Part shown: in pieces, positions 1,673 through 50,405 of the stretch
How the letters are laid out: every line of letters starts with the position of its first letter
Position numbering within the stretch: position 1 is the stretch's first letter
Source of the DNA: Escherichia coli
Lineage (GTDB): Bacteria; Pseudomonadota; Gammaproteobacteria; Enterobacterales; Enterobacteriaceae
Assembly: GCF_041886205.1 (NCBI RefSeq)
Contig: NZ_CP169029.1
DNA: 64,000 nucleotides
Direction: 5' to 3' (one strand)
The notes under the pieces: generated by a model
Databases searched by the model: none
Seen by the model: only the letters and a program-made list of their open reading frames with translations
Told to the model about the DNA's origin: nothing
Translations under genes and position numbers: made by a program

Positions 1673-4600
1673 TTGAGTACCGTGGGCCAGCGCGAACGCG
1701 CCACACAGCAGCGTCTGATTCAGTTTTTTGTTGAAGATTTAGGTTACCGCCATCTGAGTCACCGCACCGGGTACACCGGGAACAGCAACATCGACACTAA
1801 TATACTGAGCGCGTGGCTAAAACGGCGCGGCGTTAATGATACGTTGATCACCCGGGCGTTGCGGCAACTGGATTCCGCCGCCGCTCTGGGCGAAGGCAAA
1901 AAACTCTATTACGCCAATAAAGAGGTCTATCGCCTACTGCGTTACGGCGTGAAAGACAAAGAAGGCGCAGGCGAGCAGAACCAAACCGTGTGGCTGATTG
2001 ACTGGGCCAACCCACAAGCCAATGATTTCGCCATCGCCGATGAGGTGACGGTCAAAGGCGAGTACTGCAAGCGCCCGGATCTGGTGCTGTACGTTAACGG
2101 CATTGCGCTGGGCGTGATTGAACTTAAGCGTTCGTCAGTGCACGTCAGCGAAGGCATCCGGCAGAATCTCGATAATCAAAAGAAAACCTTTATCCGCGAT
2201 TTCTTCACCACTATGCAGTTAGTGATGGCGGGCAACGATACGCAGGGCCTGCGCTACGGCACCATCGAAACCCCGGAAAAATACTATCTGGAGTGGAAAG
2301 AAGATAATCCAGGCGACTATACACATAAACTCGACTTTCATTTAAGTCGTCTGTGTAGCAAATCCAGGCTGTTGGATATCGTCCATAATTACATTGCCTT
2401 TGATGTCGGGGTGAAAAAACTCTGCCGCCATAATCAGTTCTTCGGCGTCGAGGCGGCTAAACAACATATTGCCCGTCGTGAAGGCGGTATTATCTGGCAC
2501 ACACAGGGATCGGGTAAAAGCCTGACGATGGTCTGGCTGGCGAAGTGGATCCGTGAAAATGTGCCAAACTCCCGCGTGTTGATTGTGACTGACCGCACCG
2601 AACTGGATGAACAGATCGAAAGCGTGTTTATGGGCGTGAATGAAGATATTTATCGCACCTCCAGCGGCAACGATCTTATCGCAACGCTCAATCATCCTAA
2701 CCCGTGGCTCATTTGCTCGCTGGTGCATAAATTTGGTCGTCGCAGCGAAGCTGAAGACAATGCAGCTACCGACGCCTTTATCACCGAATTACAGCACTCC
2801 CTGACGAAAACATTCCGCGCCAAAGGCGATCTGTTTGTTTTTGTGGACGAGTGCCACCGCACACAATCCGGCAAGCTGCATAACGCCATGACTGCCATTC
2901 TGCCGGACGCCCTGTTTATCGGTTTTACCGGCACACCGCTGATGAAGAAAGATAAGAAGAAGTCGGTTGAGGTGTTCGGCCCTTATATCCATACCTATAA
3001 ATTTGATGAAGCGGTGGCCGACGGTGTGGTGCTGGATCTGCGCTACGAGGCACGCGATATTGACCAGTATCTGACATCAGAGAAAAAGGTCGATGACTGG
3101 TTTGAAGCCAAGACTCGCGGTTTGTCGAATTTAGCTAGGACCCAGCTTAAGCAAAAGTGGGGATCAATGCAGAAGCTGCTCTCCAGCAAGTCGCGGCTGG
3201 AGCAGATCGTTAACGACATTTTGCTGGATATGGATACCCGTCCACGCCTGATGGACGGGCGCGGCAACGCCATGCTGGTATGCAGCAGTATCTATCAAGC
3301 CTGCAAGGTTTACGAGATGTTCAGCCAGACCGAGCTGGCAGGAAAAGTAGCGATTGTGACCAGCTATCGCCCCGATGCCGCCAGCATCAAAGGCGAAGAA
3401 ACGGGCGAAGGGTTAACGGAGAAACTCTCTAAACACGCCACCTATCGTAAAATGTTGGCTGACTATTTTGAACAAAGTGAAGAGAAGGCCGCCGCACGCA
3501 TTACCGAGTTCGAGCGGGAAGTGAAACAGCGTTTTATTGAAGAGCCGGGGCAAATGCGCCTGCTTATCGTGGTGGATAAGCTGCTGACTGGCTTTGACGC
3601 GCCGTCCGCCACCTATCTCTACATTGATAAAACCATGACCGACCATACGCTGTTTCAGGCGATTTGTCGGGTGAACCGGCTGGACGGTGAGGATAAAGAG
3701 TATGGCTATATTATCGATTATAAAGATCTGTTCCGTTCGCTGGATAAAGCGATTACCGATTACACCACGGGCGCGTTTGATGATTACGATCGGGACGATG
3801 TGGCCGGGTTGCTGAAAGACAGGCTAGAGCAGGCGCAACTGGATCTCGACAGCGCGCTGGAGATGGTTCGCAGCTTATGTGAACCCGTCAAAACCCCGCG
3901 CAGCCTGCAGGACTATCAGCACTATTTTTGCGGTGAATCAGGAGAGAATCAGACTTCGTTAAACGAAAAAGAGGCGCTGCGCCTGACATTTTACCAGTGC
4001 GTCGCCCGTCTGCTACGCGCTTATGCCAACATCGCCAATGAAATGCCGGAAGCAGGCTACACTGCCGAAGAGGTAGAGAGCATTCGCGCCGAAGTCGCTG
4101 AATTCGAAAAACTGCGCTATGAGATTAAGCTGACCAGCGGCGATCTTCTGGATATGAAGCGCTTTGAACCCGCTATGCGTCATTTACTGGATATGTATGT
4201 TCGCGCCGATGATAGCGAAGTGCTGATGGATTTTGAAGAGTTAAGTCTGATTGAACTGATTGTCGAGAAAGGCTTGGCGGCGACCGTCGCCCTGCCGGAT
4301 GATATCCGTAATAATCAGGATGCGATGGCGGAAACCATCGAAAACAACGTGCGCAAAACCATCGTGGATGAAAACCCGGTTAACCCAAAATACTATGGAC
4401 GCATGTCGCAACTGCTGGATGAACTGATTACCCTTCGCCGACAAAATGCGCTCAATTATCAGCAGTATCTGGAACGTATCCGCGATTTGTGTAAACAGGT
4501 CATCCGCCCGGAGCAAACCGCCGGAGCGTGCTACCCTGCCACCATGGATACACAAGCAAAGCGCGCCTTCTATGATAACTTCGGCCACGACGAGGTACTG

Positions 4601-42200: not shown

Positions 42201-42284
42201 AAATTCTGTTTATCAATTAAACTTCTGGATAAATTGTTCTTATGCTTCTTTTTCCTCCTGAGGTGATCACGTGATGACAAAAAC

Positions 42285-42593
42285 TTATCTGCTCATGGTC
42301 ATATCTGAAGAAAGCGTATGTCGCACTTCGTCATTAACACCTTTGACTGCTGATCTGGCAGGTACAGTATGTAAAGTAAGCCATTCGTCAATAGCTGATG
42401 AACGCCAGCCCACAGAACCACTACCAAGACGTACCGGCCTGGGGAAGGTTGCATCGTAGTATTTCGATAACGGATTCATTTTTTCGTAAATTGTCGAACG
42501 AGATATACCTAACAATTGGCTCAGTTCAGGCATCCGTAAGATGCGTGAAGGAGTCCAGCAGTATCCGGATTGATCTGGCATTTTATCCCCCAT
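42285..42593 (-). CDS. alpA: AlpA-family phage regulatory protein
   Basis: Motif RILRMPELSQLLGISRSTIYEKMN...YDATFPRPVRLGSGSVGWRSSAIDEWL. Confidence 0.7.
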   Translation of the reverse strand: MGDKMPDQSGYCWTPSRILRMPELSQLLGISRSTIYEKMNPLSKYYDATFPRPVRLGSGSVGWRSSAIDEWLTLHTVPARSAVKGVNDEVRHTLSSDMTMSR

Positions 42594-42786
42594 AGTGTGG
42601 TGAACTGTCGTTACAGTTTGTATTCCCCGGGTAAATTTGTCTGCGTAAAAAAATGGGCTGAGCAAAAAGACAATAAATAATTAAAAATCAATACGATAGA
42701 AAACAACAGCATTATTGTTATTTTACTTTCACCTTATCGCTGTCGATTCTCATTATCATTCATTGGTAAAAAACAGCAAAAGAGGC

Positions 42787-43553
42787 CCTGGTAATGACTC
42801 CAGTCAGTAGTACAGTGTTTTCGACAAATGAACCAATGGCTTTTCGTGAATTTCCAGGGAGCGTGAAAAGCAAATCGTTTTCCGGGCTGGTCGTTTGATG
42901 TGAGTACGAAGTGTCAGATTGTTGCACTCAATGCGCCGGGTAAATATCTTGCCGACAAGATGCTTATCCTGTGGCATTTCTCTGGTATAACTGCTCCGGT
43001 TGTCTCTGGTTATCATGCCTGTGGAGAATGGCTTCAGGAGTTCCGGCAACTCACGACATGTTTCATCAGTGCGAGGACCAAAAGTGTAAGCCAGCACACC
43101 TCCAGATTTGGTGTTATACGCATACCAGTGCCACTGCTGACGAGCTTTGTTTTCGACAAAACTCCATTGTTCATCAAGTTCGCAGATAAGCGTCACATCG
43201 GCACTGGCGACTGGAGATGTGGTTACTTTGCGTGGTGAGCGTTTTATAAAGTGAGAATGACGGTGTTGATATCCACCTTCAGCGTTCTGGAACTATCGCG
43301 AACCCCGACTCCGTTATGAACCATTTCAACAATTTGCTCTTTAATGCCTGGTTTTCGGGTTTCGTAGATGTAATTCAGTTGAAATACACACGTTTGCAGG
43401 ATTAGCACTGGAAACGCTCATGATCTGAGGTGCTGTGATCATAATGGTACACTTTATAGGAATTACAGCTGGGAGAATGTACTGTAACTGTTGCCATATG
43501 GTCTCCAGATACCAATAGAATACCACATTAATCTATCGTCAGAAGGCATCACC
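42787..43553 (-). mobile_element. Divergent IS1-family element
   Basis: 767 bp; IS1-like termini (GGTAATGACTCCAG... and ...GAAGGCATCACC); InsA-like C-terminus (MVHNGVGVRDSSRTLKVDINTVIL) and InsB-like ORF. Confidence 0.6.
42804..43196 (-). CDS. IS1-family InsB-like protein
   Basis: 130 aa; resembles IS1 InsB (DEQW...RQ.W..YAY...TQRIE.NL.LR.H..R). Confidence 0.6.
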   Translation of the reverse strand: MTLICELDEQWSFVENKARQQWHWYAYNTKSGGVLAYTFGPRTDETCRELPELLKPFSTGMITRDNRSSYTREMPQDKHLVGKIFTRRIECNNLTLRTHIKRPARKTICFSRSLEIHEKPLVHLSKTLYY

Positions 43554-43693
43554 GGGGCCTTCTGACATAATCTGTTAATACGTGTACTATTACCCTGTTC
43601 AGAAAATATTGATTCAAAAATGAAAACCAGTTAACAGAAAAGCAAAATGATATAATGTTAAAATTTTATATAGTGCAATAAAAGGAGAATGTT

Positions 43694-45511
43694 ATGTATA
43701 ATTTTATCACTATAATGTATGATGTCTTTTCATGTTTTGGTGTTCTGGCTAAAAACCAGAATACCCGTGACATCCGAAATATTAAAAATTTTTCCTCACA
43801 TCAATATTCACTGGGCGACATGTTTGATGAATTAATAAACATTATTGATAAAGAACAAGTATTGAGTACAGAACAACGAAAAGTTATATTTAGGAGATAT
43901 GAAGATCTCTATGTTAAGCTAATGCACTATTCTGTTTTTACAGACCAAACACATCAAATAATAAAACAAAAATATTTTAATGACATTGTACCAATGATTC
44001 TCGCACTCGACATCAGGAACACATATCGCCCGGATAATGAGATGGCATTTTACTATCATATTCATTCTTTTCTCACTCAGATACCGGATAATGAGGATGA
44101 TATATATCATGCTGCAAGGACATATCTGCGAAATTACGTTAAGTTATGTTTATCCGGATACACACCAGCGAATGCGCATTTCAAAGATATCTTTGATGGC
44201 GTATATGAATTCATTCGTAATATTCGCAAAAACAGTACACCAGGAAAAACAAAACTTATCGCAACTATCAACACATGCAAAGAAACCTGTAAACATCTGC
44301 TTTATTTAAGTAATGAAGACAAGGAAAAAATAATTTCTGACTTAGATAAAGTTCAGGTTGCATGTTATTATCTCACTATATTACTGGCTTTCGAAAGACG
44401 AACTTCATTAACAAGCACCCTGGCAACTTTATATAAAATGCTGATAAGCGAAAGAGAAGTTTCAGAATATGAATGCCAGTTATTATATTTAACCAACCCA
44501 ATAGATGTAATGAATATACTGAACAAATACATATATTACTTTCCTAATGAAAACTCACCATTTTATACACTGAAAATTGACAGTGCATTATCGTGGGATG
44601 CCATTGACGCAATACGAGACTATAGTATTTCTGATATTTATCTTTATCCTGAACAAAAAACAATAAATTGTGTCGTTGAGATTGAAAACATTGTCTTTGG
44701 CGGTTACATTTATACATTGAACAACGGCGTCACATTACAAAACATAGAAAACACTTTAAAAGATTCTTCATGCCATTATGTCTTAAATGGCTATACAGAA
44801 TTTGTTAACTGTTTGATACAACTTACTTCAGGAAAGACTGAAAGTGTTCATCGCACCATCAATAAACTGAACTATGAGAAATTACCTTTTGGATTTATCA
44901 TTGCCGCGTTTGCTATACTAAAGATAGCATTTAAAATAAAATTCAGTAAAAATCATGTAAATATCCGAGCATTATTAAATGACATCAATTATTTTATGAC
45001 TTATCAGGGCGAGTCCATTAACCTTATTTCACTGGATCACGAATACCCAGAGTCCTGTCTTCAAAATGACACAAACACATATTTATTAGGAAGAGTAATA
45101 TTTCTGTATAACTCAATGATTTATAAGTTCATAAACTGTCAGGAACATGAAACCAATAACATTCACTCAGCTATGATAAATAACCTATTACAGGAAGTTG
45201 ATATAGCCCTTGGTAAAATAAATAACATTATAGACAGCAGAAACATATCAGCCCCCCATGAACTGGCAAATATTCTTACCCGCGAAAAAATACTTACAAC
45301 ACGGGAAAAAAAAGGAAACCTGATAAGCCTGTTTGATGGATTCACTTTATTCCATTGTGTTGGAATGATAACCTTTCTTATCCATTATCTCAGAACACCT
45401 GAAGAAAAAGTTGAAAATATATTTATGTTATATGGTGCAGATAAAAACAATAAACTACGCAGAAGACTGATTTATGACGCACTAGGAATAATTCAGTCTC
45501 AGCAGGAGTGA
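43694..45511 (+). CDS. Hypothetical protein, 605 aa, AT-rich orphan in the int-alpA variable slot
   Basis: Long uninterrupted ORF; very low GC versus flanks; no motif I can recognise. Confidence 0.5.
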   Translation: MYNFITIMYDVFSCFGVLAKNQNTRDIRNIKNFSSHQYSLGDMFDELINIIDKEQVLSTEQRKVIFRRYEDLYVKLMHYSVFTDQTHQIIKQKYFNDIVPMILALDIRNTYRPDNEMAFYYHIHSFLTQIPDNEDDIYHAARTYLRNYVKLCLSGYTPANAHFKDIFDGVYEFIRNIRKNSTPGKTKLIATINTCKETCKHLLYLSNEDKEKIISDLDKVQVACYYLTILLAFERRTSLTSTLATLYKMLISEREVSEYECQLLYLTNPIDVMNILNKYIYYFPNENSPFYTLKIDSALSWDAIDAIRDYSISDIYLYPEQKTINCVVEIENIVFGGYIYTLNNGVTLQNIENTLKDSSCHYVLNGYTEFVNCLIQLTSGKTESVHRTINKLNYEKLPFGFIIAAFAILKIAFKIKFSKNHVNIRALLNDINYFMTYQGESINLISLDHEYPESCLQNDTNTYLLGRVIFLYNSMIYKFINCQEHETNNIHSAMINNLLQEVDIALGKINNIIDSRNISAPHELANILTREKILTTREKKGNLISLFDGFTLFHCVGMITFLIHYLRTPEEKVENIFMLYGADKNNKLRRRLIYDALGIIQSQQE

Positions 45512-45698: not shown

Positions 45699-46901
45699 TT
45701 ATTTATTCACAATTTGAGACATCACATAATCCGCCCATGCCTGCATCATCGGTACACGCTGCTCCAGTAGATCAGTACGATGATATGCCGCCTCAACCTT
45801 ATTTTTCAGCGTATGAGCGAGCGCCCTTTCCGCCAGATCCCGCGAATACCCCTGTTCACTACACCAGTCCCTGAATGTTGAGCGAAAACCATGTGCCGTG
45901 GCAACTCGCCCCGGAATGTCACTGACGGCTTTCTTTTTACGCAGAAAACTTGTCAACACCATATCGGAAAGGATCTGCTGCTTTCTGGGTGAAGGGAACA
46001 CCAGTTCATCATGCAGGCCACGTATATTTTCCAGAATGTAAATAGCCTGCCGGGATAAAGGAACACGATGCTGTAGCCTGGCTTTCATTCTTTCTGCAGG
46101 TATAGTCCATACCCGCTTATGAAAATCAATTTCAGCCCAGCGCATTCCCCTGGCTTCGCCCGAGCGAGTTGCTGTAAGTATCACCATTAATAACAGTGCG
46201 CGGGTAACATTATAAGGTTCATCACTATACACACTGGTCGCCACAAAAAGCGGTAACTGCCTCCAGGGCATTGCTGGTTGGTGTTCATCACGTCCTCTTG
46301 TCTGCTGAGGAAGCAAATGGTCAACCACATCAACAGGATTTGCCACACAAAAACCGTGCGCCCATCCCCACTGCATAACAACATGAATGCGCTGTTTAAC
46401 CCGGCTTGCCGTTTCTGACAAGGTTAACCAGACTGGACGCAGTGTTTCTGCCACGTCCGCAGCCGTAATCGAATCCAGCGTTTTTGCTCCCAGTTGAGGA
46501 AACGCGTAATTCTCAAGCGTCGATAACCACTGCCTTACATGCTTTGGATTTTCCCATCCTGGAGACAATTCTGCATGTACACGCCTGGCTGCATCGGCAA
46601 ATGTTGGGATAACGACTTTCTCAGATTCAGCCTTTTTAATCTCCAGAGGATCATCACCTGCAGCAAGTTGCTCTCGCATTATCCGGGCAGTACGTGCAGC
46701 TTCAGCAATACTGACCTCTGGGTAAGTTCCCAATCCAGCATTACGTCTTTTTTGTGTCACCGGACTTACATAACGAAAAACCCATTTCCCCCGCCCCTTT
46801 ACTGAAGAAGGATGAAGGGTCAGTCCGGTAATTCCCCCATGGGGCAATGGTTTGTCATCAGGTTTGATATGTCTTGCTTTCGTATCCGTCAATACTGCCA
46901 T
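45699..46901 (-). CDS. int: Tyrosine integrase, P4/CP4-57 type
   Basis: 400 aa; N-terminal MAVLTDTKARHIKPDDKPLPHGG... and C-terminal catalytic region (HGFRSTFRDW...LAH...Y). Confidence 0.85.
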   Translation of the reverse strand: MAVLTDTKARHIKPDDKPLPHGGITGLTLHPSSVKGRGKWVFRYVSPVTQKRRNAGLGTYPEVSIAEAARTARIMREQLAAGDDPLEIKKAESEKVVIPTFADAARRVHAELSPGWENPKHVRQWLSTLENYAFPQLGAKTLDSITAADVAETLRPVWLTLSETASRVKQRIHVVMQWGWAHGFCVANPVDVVDHLLPQQTRGRDEHQPAMPWRQLPLFVATSVYSDEPYNVTRALLLMVILTATRSGEARGMRWAEIDFHKRVWTIPAERMKARLQHRVPLSRQAIYILENIRGLHDELVFPSPRKQQILSDMVLTSFLRKKKAVSDIPGRVATAHGFRSTFRDWCSEQGYSRDLAERALAHTLKNKVEAAYHRTDLLEQRVPMMQAWADYVMSQIVNK

Positions 46902-48805: not shown

Positions 48806-49729
48806 TTAACTGTATGCATGCAGCGTACGTTGGCAAAGTGCCGAACGTACGCAATCCTCTTTACCGAACCGGACGATCCCAACCATTTCATCTTCTTCGA
48901 AACGTTCCAGCGCGTCACTTAATCCGGAGCACACGCCGCGAGGCAAATCGCATTGCGTGATATCACCGTTGACGATAACTGTCACGTTCTCCCCGAGGCG
49001 GGTTAAAAACATTTTCATTTGCGCGGCAGTCACATTCTGCGCCTCGTCAAGAATGACGACTGCATTTTCAAAGGTACGTCCACGCATATAGGCGAAAGGC
49101 GCAATTTCCACCTTCCCTATTTCCGGTCGCAGGCAGTACTGCATAAAGGAAGCCCCTAAGCGCCGGACCAGCACGTCGTAAACCGGGCGAAAATAGGGAG
49201 CAAACTTTTCTGCGATATCTCCAGGTAAGAAGCCAAGATCTTCATCGGCTTGCAGAACTGGACGGGTGACGATAATCCTGTCGACATCCTTATGTATCAG
49301 GGCCTCTGCCGCTTTTGCTGCGCTGATCCAGGTTTTTCCGCACCCGGCTTCGCCCGTGGCGAATATCAGCTGCTTACTCTCAATAGCCTTCAGATAGTGC
49401 AATTGCGCTTCATTACGCGCGAGGATGGGCGAAGTATCGCGACTGTCGCGGGCCATACCAATGGCTTCTACGCCGCTCATTTGCACAAGCGAGGTGACCG
49501 ATTCTTCTTCACGCTGCTTATGGCTGCGCGAATCCCGTCTCAGCACACGTTTTGCCTCGCGACGAGCTTTGATCACTGCTTTTTGTCTTCCCATGGAGAG
49601 CACCTTGAGTTGTTTGTATTCATCACACGCGCCGTTGGCAGCGCGATTATGCGCACGAACATCAGAGGGTTGGCTTCCTTGTAAGCCATAGTTTGCTTTT
49701 GGATAAAATGCCGAAAAACGGCTACGCAC
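48806..49729 (-). CDS. phoH: PhoH (phosphate-starvation-inducible ATPase); start codon uncertain
   Basis: PhoH/YbeZ motifs (GEAGCGKT, VILDEAQN); synteny with efeB. Confidence 0.85.
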   Translation of the reverse strand: MRSRFSAFYPKANYGLQGSQPSDVRAHNRAANGACDEYKQLKVLSMGRQKAVIKARREAKRVLRRDSRSHKQREEESVTSLVQMSGVEAIGMARDSRDTSPILARNEAQLHYLKAIESKQLIFATGEAGCGKTWISAAKAAEALIHKDVDRIIVTRPVLQADEDLGFLPGDIAEKFAPYFRPVYDVLVRRLGASFMQYCLRPEIGKVEIAPFAYMRGRTFENAVVILDEAQNVTAAQMKMFLTRLGENVTVIVNGDITQCDLPRGVCSGLSDALERFEEDEMVGIVRFGKEDCVRSALCQRTLHAYS

Positions 49730-50069: not shown

Positions 50070-50405
50070 TGCATCAGGCATCAGTGCACGATCGCCGGAT
50101 GCGGCGTAAACGCCTTATCCAGCCTACCAAACCCGCACCGATTATAGGCATGATAAGACGCGCAAGCGTCGCATCAGGCATCAGTGCACGATCGCCGGAT
50201 GCGGCGTAAACGCCTTATCCAGCCTACCAAACCCGCACCGATTGTAGGCATGATAAGACGCGCAAGCGTCGCATCAGGCATCAGCGCACGAACGCCGGAT
50301 GCGGCATCAACGCCTTATCCCGCCTACCGAACCCGCACCGATTGTAGGCATGATAAGACGCGCAAGCGTCGCATCAGGCATCAGCGCACGAATGCCTTAT
50401 TCGCC
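50070..50405. repeat. REP/BIME cluster (three tandem units)
   Basis: Repeated GCCGGATGCGGCGTAAACGCCTTATCCAGCCTAC and partner palindromes between efeB and phoH. Confidence 0.75.

Follow-up and report, generated by a model that had tools for sequence, protein, structure and literature searches.

Between an AlpA-family gene and an orphan gene for a 605-aa protein, in a stretch of 64,000 nucleotides of Escherichia coli DNA (the window in the following), lies an element that resembles IS1 and that has no clean 9-bp repeat of its target. What is such an element? It could be a working but divergent insertion sequence, a mutated copy of canonical IS1, a sequence that its host island has put to use, or a dead remnant. 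Our analysis indicates that it is very probably a non-functional IS1N-like relic, left by one ancient IS1-type insertion that was followed by loss of function and passive inheritance.

We propose the following history. A single IS1-type transposition with an 8-bp target duplication would have entered the spacer that separates the alpA-like gene from the 605-aa gene; the recipient, an ancestral P4-integrase island targeting serW/serX, would have had this spacer at its integrase end. After the insertion, copying would have been only passive, along with the island. InsA, the DNA-binding part of the transposase, has lost a zinc ligand and gained a stop and a frameshift; the A6C slippery site needed for the InsAB' fusion is destroyed, and the C-terminus of InsB is scrambled. 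A point that this account leaves uncomfortable is that 764 bp of apparently useless DNA are kept universally in more than 1000 genomes, for which it offers no positive explanation.

Ends, reading frames and flanks of the element

The whole relic, 764 bp, occupies 42790..43553 on the minus strand, as supported by alignments to IS1A and IS1N, by Pfam matches and by the RefSeq annotation. The first-pass annotation had placed an IS1-family element at 42787-43553; the end of that interval holds, but its start takes in 3 bp of flank, and the true start is 42790. On the InsA side the terminal inverted repeat IRL (GGTGATGCCTTCTGACGATAGAT, 43531..43553, minus strand) runs inward from 43553 as GGTGATGCCTTCTGAC..., and the 10 nt of its tip, GGTGATGCCT, are identical to the IRL of IS1N. 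On the InsB side the terminal inverted repeat IRR (GGTAATGACTCCAGTCAGTAGTA, 42790..42812, plus strand) runs inward from 42790 as GGTAATGACTCCAGTC..., and its tip GGTAATGACTCCA is identical to the IRR of K-12 IS1A over 13 nt. Read on the minus strand, the element begins with GGTGATGCCTTCTGAC and finishes with GGAGTCATTACC, which are the two end types of IS1. The termini are of the GGTGATG/GGTAATG kind, and the two ends (GGTGATGCC... and GGTAATGAC...) agree at 14 of their first 23 positions. When a degenerate pattern for the canonical IS1 end was run over the whole window, 42790 was the only place that matched without a mismatch; the partner end at 43542-43553 matched with one mismatch, as did sixteen further places in the window.

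InsA and InsB are recognisable across three minus-strand frames of 42790-43553. The C-terminal part of insA is in frame 2 and insB' in frame 1, the -1 relation found in the IS1 family. Pfam profiles match far beyond chance: on the stitched conceptual translation of the relic, Zn_ribbon_InsA (PF03811) scores an E-value of 6.6e-12 and HTH_Tnp_IS1 (PF12759) one of 1.1e-20, and the InsB translation matches DDE_Tnp_IS1 (PF03400) over profile positions 2-124 of 131 with an E-value of 1.5e-54. The element thus has the features of an IS1-family member, namely the InsA zinc ribbon and HTH, the InsB DDE domain, the insA/insB' arrangement, ends of about 23 bp and the length; together with the termini and the frames, the matches confirm what the first-pass annotation had recognised. 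RefSeq labels the locus "IS1 family transposase; frameshifted; internal stop". The relic is an ordinary feature and already an annotated pseudogene in public genomes.

It had also been noted at first pass that the flanks do not form a clean 9-bp duplication. Indeed, the 9-bp flanks agree at only 3 of 9 positions. The 8-bp flanks, GAGGCCCT on the left (42782..42789) and GGGGCCTT on the right (43554..43561), agree at 6 of 8 (p = 0.0056 when calculated from the local base composition and 0.0049 when counted empirically over the window). IS1A duplications are usually 9-bp. On the plasmid pSD1_197, three of the four full-length IS1N copies are bordered by perfect 8-bp repeats (CAATTTAG, CTTTCATG and CGAAAAAC). 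Since the duplication of the IS1N type is 8 bp, the missing 9-bp repeat at the relic is to be expected, and the 8-bp flanks look like a decayed target duplication, not a missing 9-bp one. The two flank mismatches are common to all lineages, with one more in the divergent lineage L009, which suggests that the decay of the duplication predates the split of the island lineages. The core of the flanks, GGCC, is a palindrome, so the 6/8 match is not unambiguous evidence of a direct duplication; because no empty site was recovered, we infer the original target and the duplication length and do not observe them.

The flanks can also be read as an extension of the terminal inverted repeats, giving 28-nt arms. 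We have set this aside as the primary reading: GGT is the exact end of IS1N as well as of IS1A, and a duplicated target with the palindrome GGCC at its core would account for the longer arms.

A perfect 10-bp inverted repeat (GTCAGAAGGC / GCCTTCTGAC, with a 9-nt loop, at 43538-43566) spans the junction of the flank and IRL. Folded as DNA, this hairpin has a free energy of -10.5 kcal/mol (z = -5.6). The divergent lineage L009 has changes at 6 of 14 positions of the inner arm, and its hairpin is only weak (z = -1.5). The clustered changes in the arm could come from a template-switch "correction" of a quasi-palindrome.

The host island and the question of co-option

The neighbours are those named by the first-pass annotation. 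The AlpA-family gene occupies 42285-42581 on the minus strand and matches Pfam Phage_AlpA (5e-19); the 605-aa gene, which has no Pfam match, is transcribed divergently from it on the plus strand (43694-45511). The relic lies in the spacer between them with its transposase frame pointing toward alpA, and a P4-type integrase gene follows at 45699-46901. The 605-aa gene has no Pfam domain, yet it is conserved in every island copy examined, and its low dN/dS between divergent lineages (0.20) suggests that this gene, at the integrase end of the serW/serX islands, is genuine and under constraint.

In a megablast search of 5426 complete E. coli genomes, the relic was found in 1111; the median copy number per genome is 1, no genome has more than 2, and 1174 of its 1176 places are chromosomal. 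Full-length copies are 95.7-100% identical to the window copy among the matches listed. Five RefSeq contexts were inspected, those of C11, 789, Nissle 1917 and a pair of O157:H7 strains, and all of them show one order: int, the 605-aa gene, the relic, the AlpA-like regulator, DUF3987/YfjI and an inovirus-type Gp2. Ten further contigs that encode an identical AlpA protein all have a spacing of about 1112 bp from the 605-aa gene to alpA. The relic module adjoins clpA (the serW side) or ycdU/dgcT (the serX side); these are the serW and serX junctions of the O islands OI-43 and OI-48, the integrase of which shares 99% identity with the SRL island integrase of Shigella (PMC3064760). In the divergent island lineage L009-L012 the relic is at the same place, where it is 90.4% identical in nucleotides and its InsB fragment 82% identical in amino acids. 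ARAGORN found no tRNA gene in the 64-kb window; by analogy with the description of OI-43/48, the intact serW/serX copy would be expected at the opposite end of the island.

Three further observations belong here. Three strains match the window relic at 100%, strain C11 among them, and in these, as seen in C11, a DUF2726 gene and phoH, not ycdU, come after the integrase. Rfam matches above the gathering score lie in the window at 48811-49004 and 50147-50324, namely Ysr251 (188 bits) and two tandem naRNA4 (81 and 68 bits). A second relic, of a related IS1N-like element, lies at positions 3001-3165 of a contig of E. coli EC1515 (L006) and is found in 79 genomes including EC1515. Only the last ~165 bp, those of the IRR end, survive of it, 82% identical to the window copy and with the same terminus type; it still has A5 in both runs that the window copy has shortened to A4. 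Its flank is different and it lies in another island, beside a different HTH regulator, which argues that it is an independent insertion.

An island without the relic has not been met with. When the joined flanks were compared with the 5426 E. coli genomes, none of the 1033 genomes holding both flanks had the two halves contiguous; an exact-anchor pattern likewise found no empty site in metagenome contigs, against 57 occupied junctions, which serve as the positive control. Contigs representing one genome per species hold neither the empty nor the occupied site and thus say nothing on empty sites. The data themselves show the family, the lesions, the unvarying context, the lack of empty sites and the neutral substitutions; that there was a single ancient insertion event, and that its target duplication has decayed, we infer.

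Is the relic kept because it has become useful? It could have been co-opted as regulatory sequence (a promoter, an insulator or a binding site) that serves either the 605-aa gene or alpA together with its downstream genes, or as the source of a useful 130-aa InsB' protein; we consider this improbable. Its position in the divergent control region of alpA and the 605-aa gene, with the transposase frame toward alpA, fits such a role, and so does the fact that its deletion has never been found. However, in 17 sequences the relic is among the least constrained segments: its nucleotide diversity is 0.021 and its alignment has 18 gap columns, compared with 0.0035-0.012 and 0-2 gap columns for the flanking genes; the spacer between int and the 605-aa gene is the one segment that is more diverse than the relic (0.034). 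This is the pattern expected of DNA that evolves without constraint. A promoter and terminator scan of 42250-43750 gave nothing above shuffled sequence, with 3 promoter-like sites against 4.6 expected and none inside the relic, and the Rfam scan of the window found no family matching within the element. The perfect 10-bp hairpin over the flank/IRL junction also speaks for such a role, but it is not conserved in the L009 lineage.

The protein version of co-option would rest on a residual GTG-started InsB' open reading frame of 130 aa (42804-43196, minus strand). Two lineages carry different 1-bp deletions, both of which lead back to the original stop and leave 130-aa ORFs. Against a useful product stand the dN/dS ratio of this ORF, which is 0.78 between the window and L009 (integrase, 0.05; alpA, 0.07; 605-aa gene, 0.20), and the L005-type lineage, in which the ORF runs through the stop to 145 aa. 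As to the deletions themselves, the window type (42804-42823) has CACATG changed to CACTG and L009 (5001-5393) has GAAAAC changed to GAAGC, both within about 10 bp near the end of insB; either deletion restores the original stop, and the L005 type has no such deletion. With omega at 0.78, the two frame-restoring deletions are probably a coincidence. It is very improbable that the relic has been retained in all copies of this very widespread serW/serX island family because its sequence now helps to control the alpA-like excision regulator or the 605-aa gene, or that the 130-aa InsB' remnant is expressed. We therefore keep to the reading of an inert relic that is inherited with its island.

Lesions of the transposase genes

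The check proposed at first pass, for an intact zinc finger at the N-terminus of InsA, came out negative. The insA pseudogene (43224..43497, minus strand, with its ATG at 43495-43497) was delimited by three-frame translations and by alignments to the other lineages and to IS1N. Compared with IS1N and the sister copies, Cys8 of InsA has become Ser (TGT to TCT at 43474-43476), and codon 32, within the second CxxC pair, is TAA (43402-43404). An additional GT in a CGTGTGT run at 43386-43392 shifts the insA frame, a +2 insertion that the sister lineages lack.

The site of the former -1 frameshift (43239..43250, minus strand) reads TTTATAAAAC in the window copy and TTTAAAAAAC in L005, L009 and IS1N. 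The A6C heptamer has become ATAAAAC in the window copy, which creates a stop TAA at 43244-43246; both sister lineages, L005 and L009, have kept A6C, as has IS1N, and it is present in 17 of 55 metagenomic or window copies. The insB' frame with the DDE_Tnp_IS1 domain (42804..43250, minus strand) is open from the slippery site to a TGA at 42804-42806. At its end, one A5 run has become A4 within 42838-42848, and within 42810-42823 a second A5 has become A4 and CACATG has become CACTG; these 1-bp deletions (42810-42848) scramble the last ~11 codons of InsB. Because IS1N and the truncated relic in EC1515 both keep A5, the two A5 runs are likely to be ancestral. Given the lesions of InsA, of the slippery site and of InsB, InsAB' cannot be made, and the window copy, judged from its sequence, is dead and unable to transpose.

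The lesions extend beyond the window. Among the 57 occupied metagenome contigs, 54 carry a full copy, in 30 haplotypes. Cys8 to Ser and the shortened first A run occur in 54 of these 54 copies, and TAA at codon 32 in 52 of them, the pattern not having read that codon in the other two; no live copy was seen among the 54. The metagenomic copies combine the GT insertion, the slippery-site mutation and the C-terminal deletion in several ways, which points to recombination among island lineages. Divergence across 42582-45511 of the window is mosaic as well: compared with the O157 serX-type copy L005, the 605-aa gene and the spacer up to IRL diverge by 0-0.5%, and the relic and the spacer toward alpA by 3.7-3.9%. 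This suggests, on the sequence comparison, a recombination breakpoint near IRL.

When did the element die? A parsimony ancestor of the sampled lineages was reconstructed with IS1N as outgroup; although biased toward outgroup states, its InsA is intact, with 91 codons and the two CxxC pairs, its A6C site is intact too, and only the C-terminus of its InsB is damaged; it is 74% identical to IS1N. The InsA lesions could thus be younger than the insertion and specific to lineages, as this ancestor suggests; since it has an intact InsA and slippery site, the element may have remained partly functional for some time after insertion.

A reading of the window copy as a working IS1 subgroup member that has only diverged, and whose apparent lesions come from misreading, for instance of a different frameshifting arrangement, has practically no chance of being right. 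It is true that the element has kept its length of 764 bp, its two termini and an InsB frame that is open over about 150 codons. The sequence lesions contradict this reading, however: the TAA at InsA codon 32 and the lost zinc ligand, the +2 insertion that the sister lineages do not have, and the mutated slippery heptamer where the sister lineages and IS1N have A6C. In addition, the copy number tracks the island only, at 1-2 per genome, and every context inspected shows one and the same site. Multiple lesions, a single site, no empty sites and no intact copy among 54 full-length metagenomic ones are not the picture of an active insertion sequence.

Place in the IS1 family and comparison with known elements

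In global alignments the relic is 69% identical in nucleotides to IS1N of a Shigella dysenteriae plasmid and 50% identical to K-12 IS1A, and IS1N and IS1A are 54% identical to each other. In amino acids, its InsB is 72% identical to IS1N InsAB' and 38% to IS1A InsB, and its InsA is 57% identical to that of IS1N and 33% to that of IS1A. The clear divergence from canonical IS1 that had been reported at first pass is thus borne out. A canonical IS1 isoform of the IS1A-F type with some mutations, which the 13 nt of the IRR terminus GGTAATGACTCCA shared with K-12 IS1A might suggest, is refuted by these identities to IS1A, 50% over the whole element and 33% and 38% for the two proteins, and by closer relatives that are all IS1N-like, so that its probability is close to nil.

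The InsB part of the relic was also searched against 5.8 billion proteins. All matches above about 80% identity come from E. coli or gut metagenomes and are short fragments, 98-154 aa long, which are copies of the same relic; "putative IS1nuxi transposase" is the name of one GenBank entry for the relic's own ORF. The top full-length matches (~230 aa) are IS1N-family transposases at 70-75% identity, from Shigella, Klebsiella, Salmonella, Serratia and others. Among the 5.8 billion proteins there was none longer than 154 aa above about 75% identity to the relic InsB, and no intact member of the relic's own lineage was seen. ISfinder recognises isoforms at roughly >90% nucleotide or >95% amino acid identity. 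The relic, with 69% in nucleotides, 72% in InsB and 57% in InsA, is below the isoform level with IS1N; by its sequence it is placed in the IS1N-like branch, yet not as an IS1N isoform. Its PGAP name is the generic "IS1 family" and not "IS1-like element IS1N family".

At first pass it had been proposed that the element might be an IS1 subgroup member that is old or distinct. Both adjectives are supported: the element is distinct in belonging to the IS1N-like branch (69% against 50% in nucleotides, 72% against 38% in InsB), and old in having several inactivating lesions, an apparently decayed target duplication and fixation in every host island copy examined, among them those of a lineage that diverges by about 10%. 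It is neither a canonical IS1 variant nor bordered by an intact target duplication, the combination that had been named as contrary to this suggestion.

The value of the result is mainly for annotation, and it matters little otherwise. A pseudogene of about a fifth of complete E. coli genomes is placed in the IS1N-like branch instead of classical IS1, and the missing 9-bp repeat is explained by the 8-bp duplications that this branch makes. The relic is a stable synapomorphy of the integrase-proximal module in OI-43/48, the Nissle serX island and related islands. As it evolves neutrally, with lineage-specific lesions in mosaic combinations, it could mark recombination among islands.

Searches of the literature on IS1N, iso-IS1 and the host islands turned up no description of the relic, though the host islands themselves have been covered (PMC3064760). 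The RefSeq locus in OI-43/OI-48 of O157:H7, in the Nissle 1917 serX island and in related islands has the same sequence (96-100% identity) and position as the relic. Its annotation gives neither the IS1N-branch assignment nor the 8-bp duplication; otherwise there is no substantial difference. With IS1A of E. coli K-12 the relic shares the family, the Pfam domains, the architecture and the 13-nt IRR tip, but only 50% of its nucleotides and 33-38% of its amino acids. The closest named insertion sequence is IS1N (IS1 "NuXi", iso-IS1n) of Shigella dysenteriae. The two have in common a length of ~765 bp (764 bp in the relic, 766 bp in IS1N), the layout of insA, -1 frameshift and insB', probably the frame of an 8-bp target duplication, and the InsB motifs ICELDEQWSF, AYTFGPRTDETCREL and KTICFSRS. 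They differ in that the relic has 69% and its inferred ancestor 74% nucleotide identity to IS1N, far below the isoform level of ISfinder, and in that IS1N is intact and multicopy, with 4 copies in 50 kb of pSD1_197, whereas the relic is a single dead copy per island.
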